This document shows, piece by piece, positions 23,527 through 64,000 of a stretch of DNA of 64,000 nucleotides. Under the pieces are notes generated by a model that made no database searches, was not told the DNA's origin, and saw only the letters and a program-made list of their open reading frames with translations. This DNA comes from Scyliorhinus canicula (lineage: Eukaryota). The position numbers and the translations under genes are program-made. The DNA lies in NCBI RefSeq assembly GCF_902713615.1, contig NC_052151.1, positions 132,355,455 to 132,419,454 of the forward strand, written 5' to 3'. Numbering within the stretch: the stretch's first letter is position 1; each line of letters begins with the position of its first letter.

Positions 23527-23647
23527 CTGTTACTCTGTCTGAGGAATAGTAGTTTCCAATAACTTCGTATTGTATGTCCAGTGGAGGTACTGTTTCAGGG
23601 TGAGTTATTGCCACAGTCAATAAAATGCCCATCAGTAAATTCACCAC
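23527..23647 (-). CDS. LAPTM4A: LAPTM4A exon 2: [40 protein letters not shown](E)
   Basis: ttgagcag acceptor, ACAG|gtaagc donor, 121 nt, phase 0-1. Confidence 0.97.
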
Positions 23648-31938: not shown

Positions 31939-32176
31939 ACAGTTGCAATGTTAATCTCCTCCAGCATCTACTTGTGTATTGATTGACGTTGAAAGTTGCC
32001 ATGACGAAAAGCACAACAAACTGGTGATGAGGCGACGGGTCCTTACAGTAAGGCCATCCGAAAATTAAAGTGAAGAAACTTTATTTTTCAACTGCAAACC
32101 ACACGTTGGCTTTGAACTGCACAGCAGAAAAAAGGCTGACAGGAAGTTGCTGAGTTAGAGCAAAAGAAAGTTATGA

Positions 32177-32885: not shown

Positions 32886-32974
32886 CTGAAGCAATAAAGG
32901 ACAGTTGAAATGTTAATTACTCCAATGTCTATATGTGTACCGATTGGTCTCGAATGGTAACAGAACAAAATGAA

Positions 32975-34130: not shown

Positions 34131-34974
34131 TTTGATAATTGGTTAGAGATGAGCAGTATTTAACATGGGATAGCACATGGCAAGAGTTTTTGTACAATTA
34201 CAAAAAAAAAGTATTTATATCCTCAATTAAGTATTTTTGAAGTGTAGTCATTGTGTTGCAGAGCACTTCTTGGGTACTAACAAGATCAAATAGGTGAAAA
34301 ACAAAAAGTTGGAAATGTACAGCATATCAGTCAGCATTTGTGGAGAAGGCAATCAGTTAACATCTCAGGTTAGCACCCAATTAGAAAAGTCAAACATGAA
34401 GATGACAAGACGTGAGAAAATTGTACTGGCAAAGGATGAACTGAATTGCATTATAACCAGGGGATCTAAGGTAGCAATAAGCAATGTGGATTTTCTGGAA
34501 TACCACCAAGTATGCACCGAATGGCCTCCTTCTGCATTGTAAGGATTCTACATACACAAGAAATTCTAACTCGACAGCAATCGTGATTAATAATGGGATC
34601 AGCGGTTATGGGGAGAAGGCAGGTGAGCAAAATATCATTAAATATTATTAATTTGACAGTCAACCTTTTGAAAAAATATATCTCAAGACATTTCAATCAA
34701 TGTAAATTTTGTAATCGGACTTTAGATTAGTCAAATCAATATATTCAGACCTATGGGTGTCTAGGTATAGAGATATTTTGATTTGGTAAATGCTTGTTTT
34801 TATTTAAAAGTCTCGCCACGAGCTAAAACTATCACTTGGACACTAGGGGCCGGGTAAACCTGTTGACTTTTGAACAGACTTCATTTCCCAGAAATGACAT
34901 CAAAAAACGTCACATAACCCGGTCATATGGGGGGGGGGGGAGAAGGGTCAGGAACCGGGCCCAGGGTTTTTTTT

Positions 34975-36773
34975 GGGGGGGGGGGGGGGGGGGGGGTCGG
35001 GAGCCCGGAAGGGGGGGGGGGGTCGGGAGCCGGAAGGGGGGGGGGTCGGGAGCCCGGAAGGGGGGGGGGGGTCGGGAGCCGGGAGCCCGGAAAAGGGGGG
35101 GGGGGGGGGTCGGGAGCCGGAAAGGGGGGGGGGGGGGGGGGTCGGGAGCCCGGAAAGGGGGGGGGGGGGGGGTCGGAGCCCGGAAAGGGGGGGGGGGGGG
35201 GAGGGTCGGGAGCCGGAAAGGGGGGGGGGGGGGTCGGGAGCCCGGAAAGGGGGGGGGGGTCGGGAGCCCGGAAAGGGGGGGGGGGGGGGGTCGGGAGCCC
35301 GGAAAGGGGGGGGGGGGGGGTCGGGAGCCCGGAAAGGGGGGGGGGGGGGTCGGGAGCCCGGAAAGGGGGGGGGGGGGGGGTCGGGAGCCCGGAAAGGGGG
35401 GGGGGGGGGGGGGGGTCGGGAGCCCGGAAAGGGGGGGGGGGGTCGGGAGCCCGGAAAGGGGGGGGGGGGGTCGGGAGCCCGGAAAGGGGGGGTGGGGTCG
35501 GGAGCCCGGAAAGGGGGGGGGGGGGGGGGGTCGGGAGCCCGGAAAGGGGGGGGGGGGGGTCGGGAGCCCGGAAAGGGGGGGGGGGGTCGGGAGCCCGGAA
35601 AGGGGGGGGGGGGGTCGGGAGCCCGGAAAGGGGGGGTGGGGTCGGGAGCCCGGAAAGGGGGGGGGGGGGGGGGTCGGGAGCCCGGAAAGGGGGGGGGGGG
35701 GGTCGGGAGCCGGAAAGGGGGGGGGGGGGGTCGGGAGCCCGGAAAGGGGGGGGGGGGGGGGTCGGGAGCCCGGAAAGGGGGGGGGGGGGGGTCGGGAGCC
35801 CGGAAAGGGGGGGGGGGGGGTCGGGAGCCCGGAAAGGGGGGGGGGGGGGGGTCGGGAGCCCGGAAAGGGGGGGGGGGGGGGGGTCGGGAGCCCGGAAAGG
35901 GGGGGGGGGGGTCGGGAGCCCGGAAAGGGGGGGGGGGGGGGTCGGGAGCCGGAAAGGGGGGGGGGGGGGTCGGGAGCCCGGAAAGGGGGGGGGGGGGGTC
36001 GGGAGCCCGGAAAGGGGGGGGGGGGGGGTTCGGGAGCCCGGAAAGGGGGGGGGGGGGGTCGGGAGCCCGGAAAGGGGGGGGGGGGGGTTCGGGAGCCCGG
36101 AAAGGGGGGGGGGGGTCGGGAGCCCGGAAAGGGGGGGGGGGGTCGGGAGCCCGGAAAGGGGGGGGGGGTCGGGAGCCCGGAAAGGGGGGGGGGGGTCGGG
36201 AGCCCGGAAAGGGGGGGGGGTCGGGAGCCGGAAAGGGGGGGGGGGGGGTCGGGAACCCGGAAAGGGGGGGGGGGTCGGGAGCCCGGAAAGGGGGGGGGGG
36301 GTCGGGAGCCGGAAAGGGGGGGGGGGGGGGGGTCGGGAGCCCGGAAAGGGGGGGGGGGGGTCGGGAGCCCGGAAAGGGGGGGGGGGGGTCGGGAGCCCGG
36401 AAAAGGGGGGGGGGGGGGTCGGGAGCCCGGAAAGGGGGGGGGGGGTCGGGAGCCCGGAAAGGGGGGGGGGGGGGGTCGGGAGCCCGGAAAGGGGGGGGGG
36501 GGGGTCGGGAGCCCGGAAAGGGGGGGGGGTCGGGAGCCCGGAAAGGGGGGGGGTCGGGAGCCCGGAAAGGGGGGGGGGGGGGGGTCGGGAGCCCGGAAAG
36601 GGGGGGGGGGGGGGGTCGGGAGCCCGGAAAGGGGGGGGGGGGGTCGGGAGCCCGGAAAGGGGGGGGGGGGGTCGGGAGCCCGGAAAGGGGGGGGGGGGGT
36701 CGGGAGCCCGGAAAGGGGGGGGGGGGGGGGTCGGGAGCCCGGAAAGGGGGGGGGGGGGGGGTCGGGAACCCGG
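34975..36773 (+). repeat. G-rich minisatellite [G(~10-20)TCGGGAGCCCGGAAA]n, roughly 60 units
   Basis: Direct observation. The G-tract length varies around a nearly invariant core. Confidence 0.97.
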
Positions 36774-36983
36774 CTCGGGGTTTGGGGATCAGGAAACGGG
36801 TCCGGGGGGCCAGGAGCCCGGAAGGTGGTCAGGGGCCAGGCCGGGGAAAGGGGTCAGAGGCCGGCGGACTCTCACTATCCCTCAGACGCCTCGCTGTCCC
36901 CCCTGGGCTCAGCCCCGGGTGGGCGGCCGTTTGTTTATCGCTCCGCCCGCCTCCGGCTGCGCGCATTTCAATTCCGGACTCAC

Positions 36984-37082
36984 CATGTACCAGGTTCCGA
37001 GGATAATGGTGCCGGTGCGGACATGGCAGAAAACGCAGCACCAGGTACTGTACAGGCGGCTGCCGACAGATTTGAAAGTCAT
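36984..37082 (-). CDS. LAPTM4A: LAPTM4A exon 1: [33 protein letters not shown]
   Basis: ATG with A at -3 (aaacaATG), ATG|gtgagt donor, 99 nt. Confidence 0.96.
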
Positions 37083-43509: not shown

Positions 43510-46500
43510 GTAGGCAATTGATGTTTAATGAAACATTTTTCAAATGTAGTTCTGAAAAGCAGTTTATGCAGGTCTCATAAAATGAATACCAAAATAGATG
43601 AGACTTTTAATATCAGCTGTCAAGTAAAATATCACTCTCCTTACACATTAAAAAAATGATCAAACATTTACCAGCATATGCTGAGAACACCTTCACCATA
43701 GTCACTGTATTGCAAATCACAGTGCTACTGTACAAGTTCCACTTTCACAGCTTTATATTTGTAAAGTTTGAGAAATACCTTCCAAAAGGATTGTAAAAGA
43801 TTTGTTAAAACAATTATCCTACTTAAATTAACATAACACAATGATTACACCACACACGTGGTTTACTATCAGGAAGATATTTTTTATTATCCTTTTTAAG
43901 ACCTTCATGAAATGAAATCTTATGAAAAGGATAAACTGCGTGTTCCATCATTTCCCAATGCGTAGCATATTTACCTCATGATAAATACTTGTTTTTTTAA
44001 ACCAATTGTTGAAACATAGAACATTCATTATATAACAGAAACGAAAAAAAAAATCGCACAAACTCTATAATATAAAGTGCAAACATATTATACAGTAATG
44101 CAGACTTATACTGAAAAAATTGTCCACATTATCAAAAGACCCAACTTGTTTCTAGACTACCTTTAACCAAATGACTGTTCAATATTTTACAAGTAGGAAA
44201 TCAGTAAACTTCAGAAGCCCAGAATTCAAATTTGAAAATCCAAAGTAATTTAAATATTGAAAAAATGTTATTCCCTTGTTAAATACTTTTGTCCAGCGTA
44301 AACCGACCATACAATCTGATGAGTTGCAAATTCCTGCACATTTTAAAGTTTCCCGCGCAGTAAGGGAATGACTTATAAAGTGGTTCACTTTGCATCAGTT
44401 CTGTTAACTAAATCAGTCACTAGAACAGAGAAATGATGCATAAAATGGACTTTACAGTTATATATAGGTTTGAGTAAAACATTTCTTGACAGTCTTAAAC
44501 AATTATCATTATTTGCTACAAAAGCATTTCAAATTTAATTTATTAATTGATGCCGTAAATTATCATTGCATCAAGATGTTTATGAAGTAAAAGTCAAATA
44601 TTCAGCGAGAGCAAAACAGGCATAACCTTCACAGCAGATTTGAAGTCAGGTCATATTTTGAAAGAAATGTGTCGCAGAAGTACATTGTAATTCTATATAA
44701 ATCGTTGCTGTTGGGGGAGGAAATAATGCACTCCAAGAGTTATAAAAAAAGGACCGAAATACTTTCTTATAAGAACACTCGTGAGAACTGTTAAATCTTC
44801 TCCTATAAAACTGTTAAGTCATCATTAAGGCTAATCTGGCCATATGACCAGTTAAAAAGTTGTATAGCTGGAGAAAAAACATCTTTCCTGCAGTTATTCA
44901 GAGACTGGCATGTGTTCATCATGTTTATCACTGATTGTGAAAGAAAATGTAATGGGTGAGTGACAGTAGCAAACACCCTCAGAAATCTGGATAGTTTAGC
45001 TCTTTGCAAATAGTAAATGCTATATTTAAGGATACTGGTTCAGGAGGTATCGGTTGTTGCTAACTAGTAGGCTATTTACATAAAATACGATGTTGCTTTG
45101 ATTTTAAATCACTCTTTAACTGAATTCTCTTCCAAAGAAAATTGAAAATTCACTGCTACATTACACAGGATTGTATCTAATATTGAATACTCAAACAAAT
45201 AATACACAAGGTGTATACCTAGGGAAGTCATAGGTGCTGATTTACTTTCTGTAAGATAATTTAGTGCATGTGTTCTAGCCTTCATTCAGACATTTTTATC
45301 CTTTGTTTGCGCCAACTCAGGTTTTGATGCTGTCAAGAATCCAACACAGCAATTAAACACTATCCCTTTAGTTCAAACAATTATCATTACATCTTTAGTT
45401 GTCACATTTCACACTGTTTGTCATATTACTGCTCAATGATTCATTTAGTGTAAGCACATTGAATGAAACTATAAAATAAAATAAATTATCAATTTGAAAA
45501 GTTAATGGAAAAAGACTTTAGATTTCAGAAGGCAATGGACAGATCATCATATCATAAGTTTGAGTGCCTGTGACTGATGCTTAGTTTGTATAAACTATCT
45601 TATTGCATCTTGAAATGGTAACATTGCAGAACAACTAGGTTGAGCAAAAAAAGTGGATCTTTCTAGAAGGCCCCCACTTCTACATTTGTACAGCAACCCT
45701 GATTGGGTTTACAGCAAAATGTTTCAAAATGAGCACATTTCTTGGAAATATTGGTCTTCAATGTCGTTTAGATCAATAACTGTAATGCCAATCCATGGAT
45801 TTCCGTCTGATTGGAATAAGATATTCTCATTAGTAAGCGCTCATTGAATCCTTCTATCAACTGATCAGATAATCTCAGCCTTTAGTATCTATTTTAACAT
45901 TGGAGATTATGTCCCCTTTTGTTTGATAGAAGGTTTAGAAATAAATCAGCCTGACTGATATAGAGCACTTTTAAACTCGAAACTAAGGATTTGTCAATAA
46001 ACGAAGTGAAAGCATTGGCACCACTGACAAAAGATACATAACATGTTTTATAGGCTGCACTTCTAAGGCTCCCTTGCAGTTTGCAAAAAAAAAAATCAGC
46101 CATGTTCACCCTAAAAGATGCAAAATTATAGTATTCAAATAATAACCTTGCTTGTCCAGATTTTGTAAGTAATACCTGAAGTGCTATAATATTGCTATGA
46201 GCTATCAGTGGACAAATGACAGATGACTCCACATGTACACCTCAACATTGTCGAGTATGATCCTACCTGCAAGTAACCAGTATGACTTAAGACACAGACA
46301 TGCAGACATAGTTTTAAGTACAGCTTCACAATAAGACACAACACATCTGTTCCTGTGTACATGAGATGAACATGGACAGTTTTACATGGATTGCAATTAA
46401 AAATGAAACTTTAAAAAAAAAATGTAATCTAGCCTGTTTCTATACTGCCATAAGTCGAGGCTGCTTGGGACTGGCAAAGCGGGTTTGCATCCCATGTTGT

Positions 46501-46781
46501 GCTAAAATAGAAAAATCTACAAGGAACGTAGGAAATGCATCCCTTTTGTAGCTGAATTTCACCCTTCAGTAGCAATAAGCACTTGGCTTCAACTACTCCG
46601 TTTCCTTTGCTCTGTGGTTTCCATGACTAGGCCAGAGCTTCCTACTATTTTGTCCCTTTGTTCATTTTATGGACTTAGTGCAATGCTTCCTGCAGCAGAA
46701 CGCTTGAAGCTAATTTAGCAGTAACTGGTGACGATATCAGAATGAAAAACTTGAACCATTTACATGAATAAAAAGGCAGCG
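43510..46781 (-). other. Putative long 3'UTR of the MTDH-like gene
   Basis: About 3.2 kb of AT-rich sequence with no recognisable repeats follows the TGA. Minus-strand AATAAA at 43883-43888 and ATTAAA at 43524-43529. Confidence 0.5.
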
Positions 46782-46849
46782 TCAAGTTTCTCTTCTTGCT
46801 TTCATTTTCCTCTTCTCTGTTTTGGCACAATCTAAAGTGAAGCCATTAT
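46782..46849 (-). CDS. Terminal coding exon of a metadherin/LYRIC (MTDH)-like gene: (N)NGFTLDCAKTEKRKMKARRET*
   Basis: Strong acceptor ttttttgtatttattacag, phase 1, 68 nt. The C-terminus KARRET* matches MTDH ...KKKKKARRET*. Confidence 0.8.
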
Positions 46850-46960
46850 CTGTAATAAATACAAAAAAAAAGCACTCGGGATTAAATATTGTTCACTGAA
46901 CAATATGTCATCTGCCTACAGCAAGCTTATTGTTATATATCAGAGAATAAATCCCTGTCG

Positions 46961-46992
46961 GTGACGTTTCACGTGATTTGCAGTGACGTCAG
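46961..46992. promoter_or_regulatory. Candidate enhancer: half-CRE, TCACGTGA E-box and full CRE
   Basis: TGACG 46962-46966, TCACGTGA 46969-46976, TGACGTCA 46984-46991. Confidence 0.4.
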
Positions 46993-49779
46993 CAGTGAAT
47001 GTTCGCATGGGCTTCGGTTCTCCATCTTAGATTGTATGAGCAACATCCTGAATAAAACCTCTCATTGTGTTTGTAAGAATCGAGAGTGTGGGCACCTCAA
47101 TACCTTTTCTTTTTGCAGCAAACTCAAAGATTACGATTTCCAGATTTTGGGACATCTAATAAGACCTAACAAAATTCCCCTTCTATTGAGTTTTTGAAAT
47201 TCATCTTTGCTCATCAGTCCTGGAGAAGACAATTGGTGGAAGTGATATTATGGATGAATTCTTACCATAAAAGTTAATTGCGGTTAGAAAGATTTGTAGC
47301 ATAAGAACTGATTCACTGGAATAAAATTTACACACTCAATCAAGCACAAAACCCAGGACCAGAAATTCCCGCCCAGTCAACACACCTTTGGCTTTGTCTG
47401 ATATATTTAACATCCTGCCCGCAACAATTCGCAGGGCGGGCGGGACCAGAACATTTAGGTCCCAGTTTCCCGGCTCCATTAAGCCCAGTGACCCTCTCAG
47501 ACTCCATGACCTTGATATGAACAGGGAGATTGGAGGGGGGAGTGGGAAATAATTGTCAAAGCCAGGAACGTGGATGCCGTGCTAATCTTAATGGTTGTGG
47601 CTCATTTAAATAAAATAATGGTGATTCCCACAGACAGCTCGGTCAGTGGAGCAGAATCGGAGGCCAAAATTGGGGACCTGTGGGAAGCTCCGGCCAGTTG
47701 TGAGACAGCCAAGGTAGGGCCCCAAGGTTCCAATTCCTTAATGCCTGTGAAAGGGGAAATTATTGGATTTTATAGAGGGGGAATAGATCTAACACCCCTG
47801 CATTAGAGTAAAAGCAAATGCTGGTCAAGCACCTGAGATCAGCAGAACTCGCCAACAAGGTAGTTTACTTTTTCGAAAAACAGACAATTCTCTAGCTCGA
47901 CTACTAACAAGCTTTTGGGTGAAGGTTTAATAATAAACCTACATAGGTACGATCGGAATTTTAAAACAACGTTCTGTGTACTGAATAACTGTATATCAGT
48001 CTGTACCTGTGACATGGGAGAGAAAATGGTTTTAGAATGCTCTCCCTGTGATTGCTGTGTTAGAGAAATGTGTTAGAGGAGGGTGCTCCCCCAGAGGTTT
48101 CTCCGGGGTAGTTCCTTCCATGTTTGAATCATGAATAAACTATTGTAACCGGTTCCTGGGCCTCCTGTGGTTAGTTGGAGGAAGTCCACCACAACGCTGT
48201 CTTACTCAGATGTGAGGTCGATCTGTGAGGGTTTTGGCTTTTACCCAAAAGTTTGGTGATTTTGTTAACAATGCAAAATGAAAGCACTGATTAAGCACAT
48301 AATTTGCTGCAAACGAAAATGGTCGAAACAGCCACCAAAAGAGAAATAATATATAAACCAGGAAACCCAAACTACACATGTTTAAGGGGTTCTGCTGACA
48401 AAATACGAAAGCAGAAATTTAAAGTCTCTCCAGACAGTAGTGTAACCTGTGCATTTGAACAAAAATGCTGCTAAATATTTTCATAACCTCTTCCACAATG
48501 TTAAGAAAAACATTTAAAAAATTAATTTCATTTCAATATTTCATAGATTTACTTCATAGCATTAAGATCAAAAGGTTATGGTCCAGGAATTTCATTGCCC
48601 AGAGACGGTCCTGACTGACTCTGGTACAACTGTTGTGAAGGCTGCCAAACACAATGCAGCAACAGTAAAATTCTGCACAGCATTAAGAGTGAGTTAAGTT
48701 TTCAGAGTCAGAAAAAAAAACTCCCAGACTTTAACCAGCAGCCTAAAATAACAAACCAACTAACCTATCTAATGAGCATTTTAATAACACTAAAGGGCCC
48801 TTCATGTCCGAAGTCCCATGAGTTGCTGAGTGAATTTGTCACCGTGATGGCTCAGGTGCTGCAATCGACCATTATTGAGAAAAGGGTCCTATAATGAATG
48901 TAGGGGCTTAATTTGAATATTTAATTCCTTATTTTAAATAGGTTGGCATGGATCCTGGATGCCTCCAAGAGCAATCAGATACAATAGAACTGGTGGTGCA
49001 CTTCCAGCAGCTAATGAGCATACTCAGCCTCTCAATTTGGGTGGCGGTATTTTTCATGACTGTAAAACAGGCATAATACTACTGAGTTTCCAGGCCCCTA
49101 GCCCTGAATTTTAGCTCCTGGTGAGACTTAGGCAGGCAGTAGTAGTAGCGGACAGCAAACTCTCTGGGTCCCTGCAGTGCGAAATCTGGGGGATTTTATC
49201 ATAGAATTTAATCTGGGACTAATTCTAACTAACCCTGACCAGATTCAGTATCAGTATCTAGAAATCAGGATATTGTTGGAAATTGGTCCTTAGCTTTTAA
49301 CTGAATAGGCTGTGAGCACTGGTTGTGTCTACACAACCAGTTCGTCCAATATGGAAACTACTTTCAATTGTCTTCCTTGCTGACAGCAGCCCTCAAATAC
49401 GTCTTGATGAGGGTTGGGAGTGGGCTAAGTATTACTCTATTTATAAATGATTGTCTCTGTGATATAACAAGACACAGGGTTAGATTAAAAGATTAAATTT
49501 TCTTGGACATTGTACAAAAGGGAGTTCATGTCCCAAGGGTGCTTAAAATTTCTTGAACCAAATGCATTCAAACAACACTGATATTAACAGATGGAATTCT
49601 GTTTTTTTCCTTCAAACAAAAGGGATTTGACAATAACTGGCACACAAACTGGTTCAGGCAAAGGCAAGAATAAGTGTCAGAGGATCAAATTCCATTTCTC
49701 AGTTTGCTGTGATGTAAGTTAGGTTAATACAATTTCTATTTTTCAAGGTATATTAAATTGAACTGACTAGTGCCCTCCT

Positions 49780-51509
49780 AACATGTTTGAATCTATGAAA
49801 AAGGATGTGATAACTGGACACTTGGAAAATAATAGCAGGATTAGCCACAGTCAACACAGATTTATGAAGAGGAAATCACATTTGACAAACCTGTTGGGAG
49901 TTCTGAAAGGATGTAGCAGAATAGATGAGGGTGGCGTGGCGTGGGGGGGGGGGGGGGATCAGTGACTGCGGTGTGTTTGGATTTCCAGAAGGTTTCCAAT
50001 GAGGTCCCAAAAAAAGGTGAGTAAACAGAATTACAGCACGTGAAAATTGGGGTAATATACTGGCATGGATTGAGCATTGGTTAATGAACAGAAAACAAAC
50101 AGGAGGAATAAATGGGTCATTGTCAGATTGGCAAGCTGTGACTAGTGGAGTATCGCAAGGTTCAGTGCGTGGGCTCTAGCTATTCACAATCTACATAAAT
50201 GATTTGGATGTGGGGTCTCAAAAGTAATATTTCTAAGTTTGCTGATGGCACACAAGTAATGGGAGTTGTGAGAAGAATCAGGAGGGGATCAGGGTTATGG
50301 GGAGAAAGCAGGAGAATGAAAATGAGAAACATATCAGCCATGTTGAATGGCAGTGCAGACTCGATGGGCCGGATGGCCTAATTCTGTTCCTATGTCTAAT
50401 GTTCTTATAACTCAGAGAGGCTTCAAAAGGATGAAGATAGACCAAGAGAGCATGCAAGAACATGATAGGTGGAATATAGTATGTAAAAATAAAGTTATCC
50501 ACTTTGGCAAGAAAAACAGAAATGCGGAGTATTTCTTAAATGGTGAGAGATTGGGAAGTGCTGATGTCCAAAGGGACACTAGAACATAGAATGCAGAAGG
50601 AGGCCATTCGGCCCATCGGGTCTGCACTGACCCACTTAAGCCCTCACTTCCACCCTATCCCCGTAACCCAATCTAACCCTTTTGGTCACTAAGGGCAATG
50701 TTACCATGGCCAATCCACCTAACCTGCACGACTTTGGGTTGTGGGAGGAAACTGGAGCAGCCGGAGGAAACCCATGCAGACAGGGGGAGAACGTGCAGAC
50801 TCCGCACAGACAGTGATCCAGCGAGAATCGAACCTGGGACCCTGGCGCTGTGAAGCCACTGTGCTATCCACTTGTGCTAACGTGCTGCCCCGAGGGACAG
50901 GATTCTCCGTTTGGGAGACTAAGCTCTTCCACCAGATTTGAATTGCAAGTAATTCGTGCTCCCACTAGGAGGGCCAGTCAGGTGAAATTCAGATGATGCA
51001 AATGGGCCAGCACGCTGCCCAAGTGCAGCCCGAGAGATTCCTGGCTTAATTGGAATCTGATTCGCTGATATTGGAATTTACGTGAAAAGACTGACAAGGT
51101 GGAGCAGCTCATAAGCGTTCCACTCACCACAGACTGTTATTCCAGTCAAGAGGATGGCTGCACGCAGACCAGCTCCCAGATTCCGGGAGTCAGCGATTGA
51201 CTGAATGCTGGATGGCACTGAGGAGAGGAGGGCTACCCTCTTTCCCAGGGTGGGACTGGCAGCCTCACCAAGAGGACCAGCACGCAATGCAGAAAGAAGA
51301 TGAATGACCCACTTAGGGCAGCTCGGGTGAGTCACCACCTCTGTGATCCTGACATCACTCCCATTCCTCACTCCTTACATCATCCCCCAATACGCTAGAG
51401 GCCAACAATACTGCCTGCATCTCCTTTACAACCCATCCTCCACCAAACCTCAACACATGTATTGCCTTTTTTGGCAACGTGCCTTGCACTCACATGCCAC
51501 TGGTTACAG

Positions 51510-51551
<42 letters not shown>

Positions 51552-52700
51552 TAGAACTAACTTCTGTGTCCCCAAGGATAACGCGGCCCATAATCGCCAT
51601 TGCACCAGAAGACAGGAGGGGGCATCACAGACATTCGGGTCTACACCCCTCTCAGAGAAGGGGGCCCTGCAACTCACGGGGGAGGCAGAGCAGAGTGCAG
51701 TGGCATGCGAAAAATAAGTGAGAACCCAATGCAATGCAGATGTCCCCATAGTAAGCGAGTCACCCCTCTCCCACAGAACAGTCCTTCCCAAGATCTCACT
51801 CCATGGGCGCGTTCTTCCCAAAAGGGAACAAAGTTCCAGAGCGAGCGCGTTTAGCCGCATGTTTCCCAGCACTCGCAGTGCCAGGAAACCACCCTGCCCA
51901 AAGGGCATGAAGCTGGAGGCCTCCAAACCCCTTGGAGACCACCATGAGTGCCATTCTGTCTGGTCTCCATTTGTGGGGACCAGTACCAAAAGGCACTTGC
52001 CTGAGGTCCCCGAGGCGTTGGGATTGAATCCCAAATCCTCAGGTACCTTGGGAATCTGCACATTTGAGTAATGCTTCCTGCCTCACTCTAATGCGCAGAT
52101 TTGCCAAAAACAGATCCTAGGCGTTGTGGGCGGGATTCCTCTTGTAATGTCTCACGCGATTGTGTTGAATCTTGCAAGGCCTTGGCGAGCTGCTTTTCCG
52201 GCGAGCTTCTTTCTGGCACAGCGTGCCGGAAGATGGTGTCCCATGTCTTTTGTCTTGCAGGATCATCCCGATCCTGAGAGGGTCACTCTGAGTCCAGGCA
52301 CTTGACATAAGGTCATAAATACTTGTACCAATTCACATGACACCTGCCTGAGAGGGCTGGAACGTTGCAGAGGGGTGAAGCATCTGTTTTCCATCCCGTT
52401 AACCACATGTAAATCCATGTAAAGTGCAGTTTTGCTTGGTGCCACAGGAGCGGGGCGTGTACCTGGCCGTTAAAGCCAGGACCAGAACATGACAACGAGT
52501 AAAGATGTCTTGCTGCATTTGTATAGAGCCTTGTTGCGTACGTACTGGCTCCCTTATCCAAGGAAGAACATATTTGTCATGGAGGGAGTGAAACAAAAGT
52601 TCACCAGACTGTTTCCTAGGATGGCAGGATTGTCGCATGAGGTGAAATTGAGGAGACTGGACGAAGTTAGAAGAATCAGAGGTGATCTCATTGATCTAGC
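49780..52700 (+). mobile_element. Degraded CR1 RT fragment interrupted by a SINE (50581-50890, minus) and a Harbinger remnant
   Basis: SQHRFMKRKSHLTNLL, SNISKFADGT, VIHFGKKN and LHLYRALLR motifs. Confidence 0.75.
50894..52272 (+). mobile_element. Harbinger transposon derivative with a Myb/SANT-like DNA-binding pseudo-ORF
   Basis: From ATG 51154: MAARRPAPRFRESAID*MLDGTEERRATLFP, then RTSTQCRKKMND, a GTGAGT donor and AHNRH...TGGG. The left end gggacaggattctcc is TIR-like. Confidence 0.65.
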
Positions 52701-53289
52701 CTCCCACCATCAAATTGATAATCTTCAATTGTGCAATAATTGCAAACAATTGCGAAGCAAGCATATATTGCACAACAAAATATATTTATACAAAGCCTGT
52801 AATGTAGTTAAACGTCCCCATCCACTTTACTGTTAAACACAATTTGACATTGGATCACATAAGGAGATATTGGAGCAAATAGCCAAAAGCTTAATCAAAG
52901 TGGTTGGTTTTAATGAGTGTCTTAAAGGAAGAAAGTGACAGGGAGGTGGACAAGTTTGAAGAGGGAATTCCAGAACTGAGGCCATGGGCAGCAGAGTTTT
53001 GAACGATTCAAGTTTATGGATGGTAGAACATGGGAGCCATCCAGGAGTGAATTGGAATAGGCAAATCCGGAGGTAGAAAAGGCGTGGGTCCCCTGGCGAT
53101 GACTGGAGAGATTCGAATGCATCCAGGGGAGGGGTGATGCAAGGGTGGGAATAGCTGTTTTCCCGTGAGCTCTGGTGCTACTCAGGTTACAATCCTTTCA
53201 TTTATCATGTTCACACAGTTGGTGTGTAACTGATCCAGGAGTGAGAATTCCATATTATGTAATATTTATGGCCAAACATTGGAGACAAA

Positions 53290-53900
53290 ATGCCTAGAAA
53301 TATTAAGAAAACCATCGGCATAGAAGCGGAGTCAGAAGTGACTGGGGTGGAGCAGACCCCTCAACATGGCAAATTAGTGAGCGAACAGCTTCTCAATCAG
53401 GCACTCTCAAAGACATTACAACCGATGGCTTCTAATACTATTAAGGTGATTGTCGAGAAACTTGGTCTGTTAGCACAAAATACCAGCGTTCATACTATAG
53501 AACTGCGAAATGATGGTAAAAGGTTTGATGAAGTGGAGGAAAGAATTAGTACTGGTGAAAGTGCAACTGCCTTGGTAGAGGCCTGCTTACAATCCTTGGA
53601 AATTCCTTGATGACCTGGAAAGCTATGGCCGGAAGATGTCTGGATTGTCAGTTTGCCAGAAGGAGTTGATGGTAAGCTCCAAGATAAATTCTTTGAGGGA
53701 TGGCTACCACATTTTCGTAATTTAGCAACTAACAGTGGGCCAATTGAATTATAAAGGGCATTTTATGTCCTGTCTCTGAGACCTAGGGACAACCAACGGC
53801 ACTGGCCCGTAATGATCTGTTTTCATAACTTCAAGGGTCGCCAACGAGTATTGGCGGCAGCTAGACGTACTGGGGCGTTGCTCTATGAGGGAAAAGATAT
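53290..53900 (+). mobile_element. Old L1 ORF1-like remnant
   Basis: Coiled-coil ORF 53290-53610, followed by degenerate IVSLPEGVDG and PVMICFHNFK motifs. Confidence 0.55.
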
Positions 53901-54109
53901 TTGATACAACCTAATGGATTGCATCCAATGGAATTTCCAACCTGTATACTCCGATCCAAATCAGATGCATTCCAAAAAGTATGGAAAAAATGCCCCTATC
54001 CAAATACTCAGGCTCCATAGCTTCTGACTTACTCCTACAAGGTTTTCCATATGTTATATAGTACTGCCTCTAATGTACTTGATGTGAGAGTGTGCACCAC
54101 TTTGCCATG

Positions 54110-55053
54110 TGTAGCCACCTAAAATGGATGCTGAGCTACAAAATTAGACCAAGCGCTAAGACTGCTGGGAAACAGACAGTTTAGCCAGAACAGCAGTCTG
54201 CAAAGAGCATTTTGCATTCTGCAGCAGCAGAAACCAGTTTGGGCTCAGGTGAGAAGACCTTAGCTAGGTGCAAATGGCAAAACGCTTTGCATGCTAATGA
54301 GGCCATCAGACTTGAACACCCACACAATAGATACATTTGGTTCTGAATGGACACATTCTAATCAAGGCCCAGACATCGAGGCACCAGAAACCTCCAAACA
54401 AAAGGGCATAAGAAACGCCCCCTCCATCACGGAGACCCCCTCGCATTGGGGAATTAATCCAGTATCGATAAGAAATTGATCCAATAGGTAGAGCCCGCCC
54501 GAGAAGAGGGAAGGACAATGGAACCCCTATAAAAGATAGGGACCTCGTGTTGTCCGGTCTGTTTTTCCGTGCTCCGGCTCTGACCACGACTTAGAAGATC
54601 TACTGACTCCAGCCGTTGAGCACCAGCCGCCGAACCGTAAGTGCCAGTACGACGCTCGCTACGCGAACTAAGCCCGCTAGAACCCCCAGTGACCAGAACG
54701 CTTGCTGAAGGTTGCAGCCCAAGACCAGGACGAAGGCCTCGCTCCCTGACCTTGCCTGTTCCTGTTAGATAAGTATTCTGATTACTTTAGTTTAGTCATA
54801 GCTTAGTCTCTTAGTGTGTGCATGAATATTTATTATTACTGTATAATAAATATTATCGTTTGGACCTTACTAATCGGTGTATCGTCTTTATTACTTTGAA
54901 CTTGACCTTGGAATACTAGTGACGTTGTCTATACGGCAACTGGCGACTCCTAAAGCTGAACAAATACATAAGACAGAGCCTAGTGGTGTTAAGCACTTGG
55001 AAGTTAATACACCCCAATAAACGCGTTTTACGCCCATAGTAAAACGTGCAACA
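54110..55053 (+). mobile_element. Solo LTR (944 bp)
   Basis: TGTAGC...GCAACA termini, 4-bp TSD CATG (54106-54109, 55054-55057), CCAAT 54481, TATAAAA ~54528, AATAAA ~54845. Confidence 0.88.
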
Positions 55054-55349
55054 CATGTTTCATGGCTTTATCCTTCCCCCCACTCTCCTCCGCCACCCTA
55101 TTACTTGTCCTCTCTGTTTTTTGTATATGTGCAAGTGCTGGGTTCGCTGTGTTGTTTTCTTCCTGACATTGATCACACAGCAAAAAGGAATGTCCTGACA
55201 ATAGTTTGAGCCCTGAGAAGTGGTATGCACAGCATGCTTGAAAGGAACAGGTGATATTGAATCTATGGTGCTCAAAGCTTTCTGATGATGGGGTTTTCTC
55301 ATATCCTTTCTGTGTCTGTTGCACACTAATTGATGAAGGTTGATCGTTT

Positions 55350-56700
55350 TGATTAGCCAGCAACTCCATTATCATTGCATCATGTGACTATCAGGATGGT
55401 AGGAAGTGAACTAGTTGAACCTTGGAATGCTGTGATGGCCTTAAAGAGATATGGTTGCATGGTGACCAAGGCTGGGAACTGAATAGTCAAAGGTATCTGA
55501 CATTTCAGAAGGATAGGAAGAAAGGAAAAGGAGGTGTGTGTGGGGGGGAAGGGGGGGGGTTCCATCAAGGATGATATTATATAGCAGTGAGAAATGATCT
55601 TGACTCAGCAGACCAAGATGTATAATCAATTTGAGTGGAGTTAAGAAATAGTAAAGGAAAGAAGTCAAAAGTGGGAGTAGGTTATCGAACCCCTAACAGT
55701 AGCTATACTTTAGGGCAGAATATAAATCAAGATTTAATGGAGTCTTGTAAGAAAGTACCAGTAATAATGTGAACTACTGTAATTTTCATATAGATTTGAC
55801 AGATTAAACCGACAAAGGCAGCCTTGAGGATGAGTTCGTAGAGCGTATCATACATTGTGGAACCAAACAAGCAAAAGGTCATTTTAAACCCGATAATATA
55901 TAATGAGACAGGATTAATTAATCATCTCATAGTAAAATATCCTCAAAGAAAAAGTAATCATAACATAAGGGTCTGAAACTAATGTTTTACACTTAAATAA
56001 AGACAATTACAAAGGATGAGACTGGGGAATTAATAATGGGAAGCAAAAAAAAGGCAGACCCTTTGAACAAATATTTTGTATCTGTCTACACTGTAGAGGA
56101 TACTGAAAGCATCTCACTAATAGTAGAAAATAAAGGAGCAAAAGGGAGGGGGGGGGGGGAGAAACTTAAAACAATTATCAATACAGAAAAAGTATTAGAA
56201 AAACTATTGGGACTAAAGTTCTCTGGACCTGATGGCCTGCATCCTAGGGTCTCAGAAGTGGCTGCATTGACTGCAATCTTCCAAAGGCACCAGCGAATTG
56301 GAAAGCCACAAATATTACACCTCTATTCAAGAAAGAAAGGAGACAGATAGAAAGAAACTATCGGCCAGTTAGCCCAACACCTGTCACTGGAAACATGCTG
56401 GAATCCATTAAGGAAGTAATAGCAGGAAAACGGGGCAGGATTTTCCAGCCCCCGCCACCGGCAGGATCTTCTGGTCCTGCCGAACTCGGCCCCTGGCGGC
56501 AGTTTCCCTGGCGGCGTGGTGGCAAGACACTCAAAAGTCGGTAGACTTTGGTGAGACAGGAAGAACCTGCCGATGACCAATGGCCAGCTGCATCTGGCGA
56601 GGGAAAACCCAGCCTTAGAAAATCATAATACGATCAAGCAGTCACCAGGATTTATGAAAGGGAAATTTATTAGAGTTCTTTGAGTTCTGAGGGATAGGTG
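55350..56700 (+). mobile_element. Degraded CR1 ORF2 fragment with a small GC-rich MITE (56433-56614)
   Basis: Endonuclease and RT remnants (LNKYFVSVYTVED, GPDGLHPRV). Confidence 0.65.
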
Positions 56701-56837
56701 GGAGCTCAGGAGAGATTTGACAAGATGTTATGGAACACAAGACAAAGGGCCGTTAAATGGTAGTGTCAGAAACTAAAGAAGGTGGTGATAGCAGCATAAA
56801 ATTAAATAGCTGAATGTATTTTTAAAAAAAATAATAT

Positions 56838-57050
56838 TCTTTATTATTGTCACAAGTAGGCTTACATTAATACTGCAATGAAGTTACAGTGAAAATCCCC
56901 TAGTTGTCACACTGCGGCGCCTGTTCGCGTACACCGAGGAAGAATTCAGAATATCCAAATCACCTAACAGCACGTCTTTTGTGACTTGTGGGAGGAAACG
57001 GGTGCACCCAGAGGAAACCCACGCAGACACGGGGAGAACGTGCAGACTAT
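56838..57050 (-). mobile_element. Truncated HE1-core SINE with alternative tail
   Basis: Reverse complement of the 39735-type element. Confidence 0.75.
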
Positions 57051-57357
57051 TAATAGCAGAACAAGGGTCAGCGTTCTGTGAAAGCAAAACCTATTCCTGT
57101 CTTAAGTTTTGTTTTCACAGAGCAATGACCTTTGTTCTGCTATTAACATATCTGCTATCTTACCTTGAGGCCAAATAATAAAAGCTCATATTCTACAAAG
57201 CAATAAAATTCAAATGAGATGAAAGGATGTTAAATATATTTATAAAAATAGTTTAATTCACATCCTGTGGGTATTTATACGTTTTATTGTTTACTTTTTT
57301 AAAATGAAAAACTGGAAAAGAAAGGTATTTAGTTCTACAAGAGAATGTAAGAAATAA

Positions 57358-57535
57358 AAATGAAATGAAATGAAAACCGCTTATTGTCACGAGTAGGCTT
57401 CAATGAAGTTACTGTGAAAAGCCCCTAGTCGCCACATTCCGTCGCCTGTCCGGGGAGGCTGGTACGGGAATCGAACCGTGCTGCTGGCCTGCTTGGTCTG
57501 CTTTAAAAGCCAGCAATTTAGCTCAGTGAGCTAAA
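57358..57535 (-). mobile_element. tRNA-derived SINE with (CATTT)n tail
   Basis: Near-identical to 26682-26870. Confidence 0.85.
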
Positions 57536-57763
57536 TCAGAACATACAGCACCTACAGCCTGCTCCGCCATTCAATACGATGAAGGCTGATCTTGGGCTTC
57601 AACTCAATTTTGTTGCCACTCCCCATATCCCCCGACTTTCCATGCGACCAAAGATCTGTCTATCCCAGCTCTAAATATAGTCAACAATGGAGCATCCACA
57701 GCCTTCTGGAGCAGACAATTCCAAAGATTCACTGCCCTCTAAAGTGAAGAAATTTGTTCTCCT

Positions 57764-59847
57764 AGCTACTAATGGAAGGAGGTCAGAGTACTTCAGGCTC
57801 TACCGTGGGACCAGGCAGGGGTGCCCCCTGCCCCCCTTGCTTTTTGCACTGGCAATTGAACCTCTGGCTATGGCGTTGAGGGAGTCGGGGAGGTGGAGGG
57901 GTCTGGTGCGGGGTGGGGAGGAACATCGGGTATCGCTGTATGCGGACGACCTGCTGTTATATGTGGCGGACCCATAGGGGGGAATGCCGGGTGTGATGGA
58001 GCTGTTGGCTGAGTTTGGGGGCTTCTCGGGCTATAAGCTGAATCTGGGTAAGAGCGAGCTATTTGTAGTGCACCCGGGTGATCAGGAGAAGGGAATTGGT
58101 AGGCTCCCATTTAAGAGGGCAGTGAAGAGTTTTAGGTACCTGGCGGTGCAGGTGGCCAGGAGTTGGGGGACTCTCCACAAGCTTAATTTTGCCAGGCTTG
58201 TGGAGCAGATGGAGGAGGAATTTAAAAGGTGGGACATGGTGCCGCTATCGCTGGCAGGTAGAGTGCAGTCCGTCAAATTGACGGTGCTCCCGAGGTTCTT
58301 GTTCCTTTTTCAGTGCCTGCCCATCTTTGTCCCTAGGGCCTTTTTTAGCTGGATGACTAGCAGCATCATGAGCTTTGTTTGGGCGCATGGGACCCCGAGG
58401 GTGAAGAGGGTCTTCTTGGAGCGGGGCAGAGATGGTGGGGGGCTGGCGTTACCCAACCTCTCGGGGTATTATTGGGCGGCCAATGTGTCAATGGTGCGCA
58501 AGTGGGTGATGGAGGGGGAGGGGGCAGCATGGAAAAGGTTCGAGATGGCGTCCTGTGGAGGCACAAGCCTTGGAGCCCTGGTAACGGTGCCGTTGCCGCT
58601 CCCTCCTACGAGGTATACCACAAGTCCGGTGGTGGCGGCTACCCTCAAGATCTGGGGGCAGTGGAGGCGACATAGAGGGGAATTGGGGGGCTCGATGGAA
58701 GCCCCGCTAAGGGGGAACCATCGGTTCGTCCCGGGGGACATTGATGGGGGGTTCCAGGGTTGGCACAGAGCGGGCATCAGAAAGTTGAGGAACCTGTTCA
58801 TTGATGGGAGGTTTGCGAGCCTGGGAGAGTTGGAGGAGAAATTTGAGCTCCCCTCGGGGAACATGTTCAGGTACCTGCAGGTAAAGGCGTTTGCTAGGCT
58901 GCAGGTGGAGGGATTCCCTTTGCTGCCCGTGAGGGGGGTGAGGGATAGGGTGCTTTCGGGTGTCTGGGTCGGGGATGGGAAGGTATCTGATATCTACAAG
59001 GTAATGCAGGAGGTGGAGGAGGCGTCAGTAGAGGAACTAAAGGCTAGGTGGGAGGGGGAGCTGGGGGAGCAGATCGAGGATGGGACATGGGCGGATGCCC
59101 TGGAGAGGGTTAACTCTTCCTCCTCATGTGTGCGGCTTAGCCTCATCCAATTCAAGGTGCTGCACCGGGCCCATATGTCCGGGATTAGGATGAGTAGGTT
59201 CTTTGGGGGCGAAGACAGGTGTGTCAGGTGTTCGGGGAGTCCAGCGAACCATGCCCATATGTTCTGGGCATGTCCGGCACTGGAAGAGTTCTGGAAGGGG
59301 GTGGCGAGGACGGTGTCGAGGGTGGTAGGATCCAGGGTCAAGGCAGGCTGGGGACTCGTGATTTTTGGGGTTGCGGTGGAGCTGGGAGTGCAGGAGGCGA
59401 GAGAGGCCGGTGTTTTGGCCTTTGCGTCCCTAGTAGCCCGGCGGAGGATCTTGCTACAGTGGAAGGATGCGAGACCCCCAAGCGTGGAGACCTGGATCAA
59501 TGACATGGCGGGTTTTATCAAGCTGGAGAAGGTCAAATTCGCCCTGAGAGGATCGGTACAAGGGTTCTTTAGGCGGTGGAAGCCTTTCCTTGACCTTCTG
59601 GCTCAGCGATAGGGAACTAGGTCAGCAGCAGCAGCAACCCGGGGGGAGGTTGACTATGTTTATTTAATTTAAATTTATTTTCAAGTTCTCTTGTTGTTTA
59701 CCGGGTTTGGGGGGGTGGGGGTTTTCGATATATGCGTTGCTACGGTCTTGGGGGTGTTATGCTTATTATGTTGTTTTATTGTTGCTTGTGACCGTTTGTT
59801 GTTATATATTTTGTAAAAAATTTTCAATAAAAATTATTTAAAAAAAA
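57764..59847 (+). mobile_element. Young 5'-truncated L1/Tx1 LINE inserted in a minus-strand CR1 fragment
   Basis: RGTRQGCPLPP and LYADD motifs, 542-aa ORF 57984-59612, one in-frame TAG at 57975-57977, AATAAA plus polyA, 17-bp TSD AAGAAATTTGTTCTCCT (57747-57763, 59848-59864). Confidence 0.95.
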
Positions 59848-60038
59848 AAGAAATTTGTTCTCCTCTCATTCCCAAATGATTGGCCCCTTGTTACGAGATT
59901 GCACCCTGGTGTTCTAGATTCCTCAGTGAGGGGGGACAATCTCTTAGTGTCTACCATGTCATGCCCCTTCAGAATATTGCACGTTTCTCTGAGATCCCAG
60001 AAGAAAGTTTGTTCCTACTTTAAAATCACATAACTTAC

Positions 60039-60183
60039 TTTTACTGGATGATGTGCTGGCCTCTGTATTCCATGGTTCAGTAAAAGCAATCTCTGTCAAA
60101 CACGGTTCCACCCCTGGTCTTTCCAACAGCTTCCCTTTTGGATCCTCACCCATCTTAACTTTCTTTTGAGAATCATCTCTGAG
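60039..60183 (-). CDS. Penultimate exon of the MTDH-like gene: LRDDSQKKVKMGEDPKGKLLERPGVEPCLTEIAFTEPWNTEASTSSSK(N)
   Basis: Pyrimidine tract plus AG acceptor, AAAA|gtaagt donor, 145 nt, phase 0-1. Joins the 46849 exon in frame. Confidence 0.65.
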
Positions 60184-60454
60184 CTTCCATGTAAAAAAGA
60201 AAACAGTGTGATACATTGTAAAATAACAACTTGCATAATAAGAGGTGCAAGACACTTCACAGTATTATTATCCAGCAAAGCTTGACACCAAGGCATACAT
60301 TGAGGCTGGTTGCCAAAATCTTGCTTTAACGAATGTCTTCAAGGTGAGAGATCATATTATAATTTATCTTGAAGTAAATATGGACCAGAACTCCTCAGAT
60401 TGCATTGACAGTTTCCGTGAAAGTAGTAGGCACCCATTTCACTATGGTTTTTAA

Positions 60455-60760
60455 AAAATCTTTATTGGTGTCACAAGTAGGCTTACATTAACACTGCAAT
60501 AAAGTGACTGTGAAAATTCACTCGTCACCACATTCCGGCGCCTGTTCGGGTACAGAGAGGGCGAATTCAGAATGTCTAATTCACCTAACAGCATGTCTTT
60601 TGAGATTTGTGGGAGGAACCAGAGCACCAGGAGGAAACCCACGCAGACACGGGGAGAACGTGCAGACTCCGTACACACAGTGGCCCAAGCTGGAAATCAA
60701 ACCTGGGACTCTGGCGCTGTAAAGCAACAGTGCTATCCACTGAGCTACCATGCCGCCCGT
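60455..60760 (-). mobile_element. HE1-head SINE with alternative tail
   Basis: Full head, core and aagcctacttgtgac tail on the minus strand. Confidence 0.8.
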
Positions 60761-61792
60761 GCTACCTTTGATACCTGTGCTCCACCAAAGGGAGTAAAAA
60801 ATATATTTCTGACACCATTTAGGAGTGCCCATTCCCGGATTTTGATTTGAAAATTAAGACTTTACTTACACTTAGTGACTCGTAGCATGAGAATGCTATT
60901 TACCTGCCTTCCGACATCATGGACCATGTTTGAGGGACATTCAGGTGCTACCCCAAGGTAGCACTGACGGAAACTTGGTGCCTAGGGTTTGTCATATCCA
61001 GGATTTACCTTCCGCCTTTTGCCATCTCAGCTAACTTATACCAAGGGTCTCGCTGACTCCATTTTTTATGTTTTGGCCCCATTTGAATGTGATTGGTGAA
61101 ATAGAGCAGCTCCTCCATGAAGCAGAGTGAAGGAAATCCCAGCGGGAATGCACAGAGGGCCGGCAGCAAGCTAAAATGTATTTGGGAGCCAGGAGAGCAG
61201 GAAGAAATTTCTCCCCAATGGATCAACATTTCTTTCAGTGTGAGCAGAGAACTAGCCAGGTGAAAATTACTCCAAAGGTTTCTATCTTGGCGATGAAGGA
61301 AGAGATGAGGTCCTCGCACTTGTTACTAGAGATGAGGGTTGAATGCGCGGGGAGTGGAATTAAAGCAGTCGCTTGTTAGGAAATATTAATAGGTTTCCGG
61401 GTTGGGATTTCTCTCCCGGACGATCCCAAAGTCATGAGCAGCTTCAGCAGTGGAAAGTAAGGCTCAGTAGAGCTGGGTATAGAGATAACAGAATGGAGCT
61501 CTAGAATGGAGCTAATGCCAGTTACTGGCTAAAGTGCCTTTATGTCTGCAAGGGTAAATTTAGTACCCAGGATTATTACTAAGGAAATTTTAAGTAGATA
61601 CTGTCACTGAGTCTATAGTATCCATCCTCCTTACATCCAGTGCTACACAAAACTAATTTGAGTAACCACTTCTCCCCTGTCCAGCAAAATAAATCGTTTT
61701 GAAGTTGTGTCCTAATCCCAGGAGATTTTGAAACCAAAAGTTTCAACATTATATTGCTTCCTATTAACAGGGCAGAAAACTAAAATAATTAC

Positions 61793-62511
61793 TGGCCGCT
61801 ATATACCGGCCGCGCCGTGCCCAACTCGGGACACGACAAAGCCTCTTGGGAGATTTATCGGTCTCATCTGGATCCCGCTCACAATGGGTGGGGCCTAAAT
61901 TTGCATATTCAAGTGTGCAATCACTCAAGTTTACCCAAGGCGTGGGTTCTAACTGCCACGCGCTGGAGACCCCAAGCGGGCGCTCTTTAGTACTGGTACA
62001 GCCGCTTGTGGGGGGGGGGGGGTTGTCTCCCCGGCGATTGGGGACGCCTGGTAGTTGGGCTCTTGGCAGGGTGGTGCTCTGGCATCCCGATGCCACTGGG
62101 CACTGCCAGTCTAGCACCCTGACAGTGTCACCTGGGAACCCTGAGAGTGCCAGGCTGGCAGTGCCAAGGTGATATTTTGCCCATGCCAGGAATTGTGCCC
62201 TGCCCTTATGAGAAGGGGTGCAAGGGGTTGAATGACCCCATTATAGGGGTGCTGGGTTGGTCCCGAGGCCACGGTGGGCAGGCTAGAGATCAGGGTGTCA
62301 TTCCGATCTCCTCGTGCAGTGGTGCGTGGAGCTTGTTAGTGCAGGAAATAGGACTAACTATGACTTCGGCTGAGTGTTCCTCGGCGATGCCCCAAACTAA
62401 AGCAGAGCCCTGTTCAATAGTGGGGTCGCTCTCGGCACTGCAAGCGCCGGGAAACACCCGGCTAAACGCGCTCGACACGGGACTTTGTCTCATTTCCGTT
62501 AAATCACGCCC
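61793..62511. mobile_element. Degenerate GC-rich Harbinger-type MITE
   Basis: GC-rich block ending ...aaatcacgccc that shares motifs with 51800-52100. Confidence 0.5.
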
Positions 62512-62595
62512 ACTGTCACTGCAAAGACAATAAAAAGTACCGCACTTCCTCGGCCAACATGTGAGAAATCCCCAGACATAAACATTATATCATAC

Positions 62596-62709
62596 CTTAT
62601 TTAGTGCTGGACCCATTAAAATGAAATGGACCTCCGAAGAACTGGTTATAACCGAATGTGTTTTTCCAAGTTCTGTTTGTGATTTCGAACTGTGTTTTTC
62701 CAGTGTTAC
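62596..62709 (-). CDS. Candidate internal exon of the MTDH-like gene: VTLEKHSSKSQTELGKTHSVITSSSEVHFILMGPALNK
   Basis: ccttttaattccag acceptor, AAG|gtatga donor, 114 nt open, phase 0-0, Ser/Thr/Lys-rich. Confidence 0.55.
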
Positions 62710-64000
62710 CTGGAATTAAAAGGTGGATAGAGGTTCCTTTTTGTTTTATTTAATCTTTATTTGATAACACTTGTCAAACTAAGGAGAGCCTTTAGTACAT
62801 TTTAATCACATATTCCATTTTGTTTGTTATCATTTTTTTATTACCTATTTCTGTGAAATAATGTCAATAATAACCTCACTAATAATTTAATAATAATAAT
62901 AAATTGTAGGTAATCATGGTGGTTTCATGCTTTTATGAACTCTTTAAGCATTGAATGGTAAATCAGAGGGCAAATAAGAATTGTTTTATGCAGCAAATAG
63001 TCATGACCATAATGCACTGCTTGAAAGGGTGACGGATAGAATGTCAATAGTTACTTTCAAAATTGAATTGGATATATATTTGATGAAGAACAACTTTAAG
63101 GGCTATGGGGAAAAGGGACTCGGAGCTAATTAGATAGATCTTTCAAAGAGCCAGCACAAGCACGTGGGCTGAATGGCCTACTTCTCAGCTATATGATTCT
63201 ATGTGGACCGCTTTACATCTGAGGCTTGCATGGAAGATGCAGAAGCTGGGATGAGATTGGCTTTTAAACGTAAAAAGCAATGACATAATAGGATCGAAGG
63301 AGAAAGCTGGACGTTTGGACACTATTCAAGTGTTGGTGGATGTGGGTTTCGCCTACGAGCTGGGAGCCTCTTTTCAGGAAGGCCCGCAAAACAACAAGCC
63401 AATGAGGCAGAAGACTTGCCTACCCAGAGCTACAAACCAATTAGAGACCGGCAGCTCTTGTGCTTATTGGCGTCAATTAGCAGGCCTTAGCTGCTGCTGG
63501 AATGACAGGCACTGACCGGAGCCCCAGGAGCGCAAAGTGACCCAGGCCACAGATATTGTGGAGGGGCAGCTCACAACAGGTCCCTCCCCCTTCTCATGTC
63601 CAGTCCCTCAATCAGGCATCAAGTAGCTTTCATTGAGGGGCACCCCACCCACGATAACAAGCTAGCTGCCATGTATATTGCAGGGCTACAGGCTGACCCG
63701 CAGCGGGGCTAATATCAGCGGCGGTGGGATGAGGCCCTTAAGTGGTCATTATTTGGCTACTTAAGGGCCTCAATAAGCGGCAGGGTGGGTAAGCTGACCA
63801 TGGGCCTTCCAACCCAAAACTTAATTTCAACAGCGGATGGTAACCAGGCTCCGGTACACCATCACCAGCCTAAATACATGCCCTTCCCACATCCAGTAGT
63901 TTCCTCCTATGTGACCAACAATCCTGGCCTTCTGTGCATTTCTGCAAAACCAAGCTGACCTTGAGATGATCTCATTTGAATATTTCAGTAGTATTCTTGT

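Follow-up and report, generated by a model that had tools for sequence, protein, structure and literature searches.

A second metadherin gene beside LAPTM4A in the shark Scyliorhinus canicula, a probable product of early vertebrate genome duplication

Which gene lies immediately upstream of LAPTM4A on chromosome C6 of the shark Scyliorhinus canicula, and how is it related to metadherin (MTDH; other names are AEG-1 and LYRIC)? The window analysed here is a stretch of 64,000 nucleotides (nt) of this genome (G000:C6:132355455-132419454), and it holds the last three exons of a gene that we call MTDH2. We consider it quite probable that MTDH2 is a paralogue of MTDH that arose by whole-genome duplication in early vertebrates and was lost in mammals, and that its product is, by prediction, a membrane-anchored partner of SND1.

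The three exons lie on the minus strand, are bounded by AG and GT and correspond to exons 10-12 of the NCBI model P0001. They splice into an open tail of 108 amino acids that ends in KTEKRKMKARRET-stop, and the coordinates, lengths, phases and spliced product proposed in the initial annotation were found exactly as described. When the window was shuffled 100 times and read in six frames, the terminal ARRET-stop did not occur once. Purines just before the AG make the acceptor at 60183 a weak one; the frame at this point is the same in the orthologous proteins. The region 3' of the stop codon is indeed AT-rich, with a GC content of 0.32-0.38. Since exon 10 is missing from several database isoforms (P0002, P0009, P0011, P0013, P0015 and P0018) it is likely to be a cassette exon. 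Exons upstream of the window were sought in 200 kb with the exons of the canonical MTDH of the same genome as queries, which matched the exon carrying the two-tryptophan motif (76022-75907) at E 3e-6 and the first exon (234972-234661) weakly, at E 1.7. In the following list exons 1-9 continue the numbering of the window, and the addition of 132355454 gives the position on G000:C6.

234972-234661, minus strand: MTDH2 exon 1, with the start codon and a hydrophobic helix (residues 36-54)
176278-176180, minus strand: MTDH2 exon 2
170617-170533, minus strand: MTDH2 exon 3, basic block
162559-162386, minus strand: MTDH2 exon 4, basic block
109964-109719, minus strand: MTDH2 exon 5
104415-104341, minus strand: MTDH2 exon 6
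93320-93222, minus strand: MTDH2 exon 7
76022-75907, minus strand: MTDH2 exon 8, motif DWSPPTEEWGN with W375 and W382
66788-66672, minus strand: MTDH2 exon 9, poly-Lys run
62710..64000, minus strand: 3' end of MTDH2 intron 9; the gene extends past the window
62596..62709, minus strand: MTDH2 exon 10, 114 nt, phase 0-0
60039..60183, minus strand: MTDH2 exon 11, 145 nt, phase 0-1
46782..46849, minus strand: coding part of MTDH2 exon 12, 68 nt (71 nt in the canonical gene), phase 1-stop, basic tail with ARRET-stop
43860..46781, minus strand: likely MTDH2 3' untranslated region, about 2.2-2.9 kb, with AATAAA at 44544 and 43888 and a putative end

These 12 GT-AG exons extend over 188 kb and give P0001 (549 residues) letter for letter, and the gene is intact. 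It had been described as hidden, which does not hold, as NCBI already names its product 'protein LYRIC-like'. The translation of exon 1 matched two proteins of that name from Scyliorhinus canicula at 100%, together with 14 shark and ray proteins (16 rows). The same NCBI/UniRef label is also given to the canonical proteins P0128 and P0032, while copies of MTDH2 are sometimes named 'Metadherin', 'protein LYRIC' or 'LAPTM4A', and the two clades described below cannot be told apart by name. MTDH2 is annotated by an automatic label only and its status as a separate paralogue is unrecognised. Isoform X2 (P0002) contains an extra exon of about 72 codons (L005:3957-4172, minus strand) that is not in the other species' proteins shown; it may have come from a repeat that became an exon, or from faulty prediction. 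Intron 11 encloses an open reading frame of 544 codons on the plus strand (window 57978-59612) which has no Pfam match and is probably a piece of a repeat element.

A LYRIC domain and an N-terminal membrane helix had been named as features to look for upstream of the window; the domain and a hydrophobic helix are present. P0001 matched the Pfam LYRIC family (PF15686) at E 1.3e-19, and three of three proteins tested scored above its curated cut-off (65-76 bits against 30, E 1e-17 to 6e-21). The helix at residues 36-54 has a hydropathy of 3.24 and no window above 1.6 follows residue 120, on hydropathy only and not on a topology predictor. A hydrophobic 19-mer (1.9-3.4) near the N-terminus, with none after residue 120, was present in 12 of 12 MTDH2 proteins. 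Two tryptophans seven residues apart (W375 and W382) form what is, by its sequence, a motif of the SND1-binding type; the pattern DW-x6-WG was found in 140 of 152 records of the MTDH2 class, a count that includes isoforms and fragments. In the PDB the family profile had a single strong match, at E 3e-8, to the LYRIC peptide in 4QMG. Disorder is expected for the protein, and its basic clusters (residues 95-104, 138-188, 420-431 and 537-547) are comparable to those reported for human MTDH after the helix, in the middle of the protein and at the C-terminus (PMC12025727). An LxxLL sequence stands at residue 9 in three of three elasmobranch MTDH2 proteins and was in neither of the two non-mammalian canonical proteins examined. 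Only the three elasmobranch proteins, among 14 MTDH2 proteins compared, end in ARRET. Atlas hits to LYRIC clusters score 0.93-0.94; of two others, the one to an arthropod cluster scored 0.81 and the one to ribosome-binding protein 1 scored 0.77, and both, being below 0.9, were treated as leads and dropped.

A separate MTDH next to another LAPTM4 gene had been suggested as a possibility to look for, and such a copy exists on chromosome C10. A genome search with Pfam LYRIC found four exons on C10 only and missed the gene on C6; the canonical gene is intact, its protein P0128 (595 residues) mapping as 12 exons. The intron phases of the two genes are identical at 11 of 11 positions (0,0,1,1,1,1,1,0,0,0,1), and exons 7 and 9 are of equal length. 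The two proteins share 29.7% identity over 508 columns (E 3.5e-38). The part of MTDH2 visible in the window is conserved mainly at its tail, as had been noted, with 13%, 18% and 42% identity to the canonical protein for exons 10, 11 and 12. In 25 proteins of both clades 13 positions are invariant and all are confined to two blocks, the basic one at residues 139-177 and the motif at residues 374-384. A genome search with exon 8, of limited sensitivity, gave two matches out of six candidates, on C6 and C10, and no third, more diverged copy was seen on C1 or C7.

The species range of MTDH2 was obtained from profile searches of predicted proteins, combined with species naming and scoring against two clade profiles. 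Orthologues were found in sharks, rays, chimaera, coelacanth, bichir, reedfish, sturgeons, gar, bowfin, bonefish, mormyrids, turtles and birds. In one profile search 106 of 119 rows scored as MTDH2, and the 103 with a species name are all birds, turtles, sharks or mormyrids. A second search gave 28 such representatives out of 69, namely 20 named ones from groups given above, seven short fragments, avian or chondrichthyan to judge from their sequences, and a protein from hagfish. The hagfish protein, which carries the two-tryptophan motif, had nearly equal scores with both profiles. None from crocodilians, lizards, amphibians, lungfish, chicken or zebrafish-like teleosts was seen in the MTDH2 clade in these leaky searches of predicted proteins.

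A tree of 34 chosen proteins, labelled beforehand (18 and 15 of the two classes plus the hagfish one), resolved two clades with supports of 100/99 and 99/99, each dividing cartilaginous from bony fishes. With a second set of 23 proteins, used for a quick tree, forcing all six chondrichthyan copies together was rejected by the approximately unbiased (AU) test (p-AU 5.5e-6). The duplication is therefore older than the split between sharks and bony fishes. The hagfish protein stands between the clades on a long branch, and among the named rows there was no invertebrate name. That the gene of the window is not the canonical MTDH, as first proposed, is borne out by its separate clade and by its neighbour LAPTM4A. 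Fishes are known to have a second MTDH copy, in teleosts as mtdha and its duplicate. In the quick tree mentioned above four teleost proteins (two named 'metadherin a') and a rodent fragment nested, unlike MTDH2, inside the canonical clade, and the teleost duplication is for this reason the younger one.

Like metadherin (PF15686; 4QMG), MTDH2 has 12 coding exons, the phases of which are identical, a hydrophobic helix at the N-terminus, a basic block, a two-tryptophan motif of the SND1 type, a poly-Lys run and a basic ARRET tail, and it too precedes a LAPTM4 gene and a matrilin in head-to-tail orientation. It differs in having its own clade and chromosome, about 30% identity, a shorter N-terminus and 18 columns of diagnostic residues, and it is truncated in bony vertebrates and was not found in mammals by protein searches.

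The basic block of MTDH2 (residues 139-177) presumably corresponds to the conserved basic region of human MTDH (residues 157-209) and the RNA-contact peptide described in PMC5900566. Human MTDH is described as a single-pass, disordered RNA-binding scaffold anchored in the endoplasmic reticulum (ER), with three basic localisation signals (PMC12025727, PMC5900566), and it binds SND1 via the sequence DWNAPAEEWGN, in which W394 and W401 are the anchors (PMC12311766, PMC12378409). By analogy, MTDH2 would be a single-pass ER membrane protein with a disordered cytosolic tail, whose two-tryptophan motif would dock SND1; judging from these sequence features, ER anchoring together with SND1 docking seems likely. 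The basic block may in addition bind RNA, a property towards which we lean only slightly. MTDH2 would then act as a second scaffold that takes SND1 and mRNAs to the ER surface, overlapping in part with MTDH. It is also conceivable, if unlikely, that MTDH2 is a true paralogue which has kept the motif while its function diverged, and which either competes with MTDH for SND1, or modulates it, in restricted tissues or serves mainly as a nuclear basic protein. The identity of only 30% to the MTDH of the same genome, the truncation and fast change in bony vertebrates and the apparent dispensability of the gene in lineages where it was not found would agree with this, but the helix, the basic block, the motif and the basic tail have all been retained from sharks to birds.

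The initial annotation had also proposed that the gene was lost in mammals. This agrees with the protein searches, in which no mammal was found among the 103 named MTDH2 rows or the 20 named representatives; it goes beyond them inasmuch as mammalian genomes were not looked at. The second of these searches recovered a rodent fragment of canonical MTDH at E 1.2e-10, and a BLASTP search with residues 70-582 of the human protein is reported in PMC5900566 to return species variants only. Both observations speak against a mammalian MTDH2 that is unannotated or too diverged to be detected. Such a gene could have escaped leaky searches confined to proteins, or could sit in a 50% cluster under another representative, but we regard it as rather improbable, and the loss of MTDH2 in mammals as well favoured.

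The origin of the two copies can be approached through their neighbours, the nearest of which lies within the window.

7221..37082, minus strand: LAPTM4A, seven exons (37082-36984, 23647-23527, 22038-21962, 21852-21730, 13632-13537, 11025-10927 and 7295-7221)

This gene has an open frame of 229 codons on the same strand as MTDH2, 9.7 kb downstream of its stop. Its seven exons match a sturgeon protein named LAPTM4A with 53-96% identity, and on this sequence comparison we assign it as LAPTM4A; on C10, the LAPTM4 gene situated 60 kb downstream of MTDH gave five matches of 27-79% to the same sturgeon protein. Eight database models of birds and sturgeons (P0076, P0087, P0101, P0102, P0119, P0148, P0151 and P0188, two of them avian by sequence) fuse MTDH2 to LAPTM4A. 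We read them as prediction errors that expose the adjacency seen in the shark, real read-through transcripts being the alternative. A catfish model (P0252) fuses an MTDH of the canonical cluster to a LAPTM4 gene. Genome searches with Pfam Mtp and SNase gave no match, likely owing to the low scores that short exons reach.

On C6 the order, all on the minus strand, is PUF repeats (133.0 Mb), syndecan (132.90), MTDH2, LAPTM4A and matrilin (132.27). On C10, all on the plus strand, MTDH (10.25-10.33 Mb) is followed by LAPTM4 (10.385) and matrilin (10.525), and this chromosome also carries a syndecan, at 55.3 Mb. Syndecan and matrilin are each represented by four loci in the genome, distributed over the same set of chromosomes, C1, C6, C7 and C10. 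PUM2, LAPTM4A and MATN3 have been placed beside SDC1, and LAPTM4B and MATN2 beside SDC2, in PMC1464127, and the order of PUM, syndecan, LAPTM4A and matrilin given there matches C6. The C6 and C10 blocks belong to this paralogon, whose chromosomes the same paper attributes to whole-genome duplication; its main text does not mention MTDH, LYRIC or metadherin.

We are confident that whole-genome duplication was the cause of the split between MTDH2 and MTDH. The initial annotation had proposed such a paralogue, kept beside LAPTM4A in this lineage: the paralogy and the adjacency stand, but the restriction does not, as MTDH2 reaches turtles and birds. A local or segmental duplication of an MTDH-LAPTM4-matrilin block before the jawed-vertebrate split, with no whole-genome event, could be argued from the tree, which places the split merely before the divergence of sharks and bony fishes, and from the C10 syndecan, which is 45 Mb away from MTDH. 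It is nevertheless very unlikely, given that both loci lie on two of the four paralogous syndecan-matrilin chromosomes ascribed to genome duplication (PMC1464127). A shark-specific duplicate, a relocated canonical MTDH or a pseudogene, for which nothing speaks except the absence of direct RNA evidence, can be considered refuted by the trees and the AU test, by the intact gene on C10 and by the open frames of 13 other elasmobranch proteins with 71-96% identity. As for timing, SDC1 is paired with SDC3, SDC2 with SDC4, MATN1 with MATN3 and MATN2 with MATN4 in PMC1464127. Because of these pairings the C6 and C10 blocks would have parted in the first round of genome duplication, the second-round copy of MTDH being then lost from each, and we find the first round a reasonably good candidate, ahead of the second.

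Several points weigh against this interpretation as a whole. The gene model of MTDH2 is an automatic prediction. At three of 11 positions the motif of MTDH2 is not that of the human peptide (SP in place of NA, T in place of A), which may affect binding. The LxxLL of human MTDH is inconsistently kept, eight of 12 MTDH2 proteins having one in the first 60 residues, several of them inside the helix. The first profile search was leaky: it failed to return gar and sturgeon, and even a coelacanth protein that was part of its query. Human MTDH was not among the named rows of the second. One hagfish sequence on a long branch is, as an outgroup, too little to give the duplication a date. The LAPTM4 gene of C10, which we take to be LAPTM4B, is so identified by exclusion and from general knowledge. 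Finally, the MTDH2 proteins of bony vertebrates are shorter (301-457 residues) and their exons 9-11 barely align (3-12%), for which reason the function may have diverged in these animals, and for which reason also MTDH2 is at its most complete in the shark.

MTDH has been described as vertebrate-specific and without classifiable domains (PMC12025727). Metadherin is an established family, and databases already contain the protein; in the literature searched no description of a second MTDH clade in vertebrates was found, subscription papers, supplements and gene-tree resources lying outside that search and possibly listing the pair. An old paralogue that was kept in sharks and birds and lost in mammals is a familiar class of event, which limits the surprise. 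MTDH has been studied intensively as an oncoprotein and as a drug target. An ancient paralogue is a natural comparison for it, and this comparison singles out two invariant blocks in a protein that is disordered elsewhere, the SND1-type motif being present in both clades and in the hagfish. Studies of birds, turtles, sharks or gar may meet redundancy between MTDH and MTDH2, and database entries give the two genes wrong names or join MTDH2 to LAPTM4A. We are tempted to suggest, with modest confidence, that MTDH2 is a twin of MTDH from the first vertebrate genome doubling that has served as a second ER-tethered SND1 adaptor through jawed-vertebrate history in sharks, coelacanth, early ray-finned fishes, turtles and birds, wearing down in bony lineages and disappearing from mammals, and that the features common to the twins and the hagfish protein (helix, basic block and two-tryptophan motif) mark the core function of the oncoprotein.

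Some minor observations were made on the surrounding sequence. The syndecan of C6 (G000:C6:132901414-132901578, L047) lies between the PUF repeats and LAPTM4A, and a second, SDC3-like gene is on C1. The tail of the C6 protein is presumably of the SDC1/3 type, and the gene is likely to be the shark syndecan-1. PMC1464127 left the syndecan-1 of cartilaginous fishes unsettled. No Rfam match was obtained in the window. At the start of LAPTM4A intron 1 (window 34983-36773) there is a G-rich 28-bp tandem repeat of about 62 copies, and the introns of this gene also contain LINE-type (long interspersed nuclear element) remnants on the plus strand (17581-20647 and 27745-28700), with endonuclease and reverse transcriptase domains in broken frames. 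Downstream of LAPTM4A tandem repeats of 52-54 bp (window 816-1104) lie in a GC-rich stretch.

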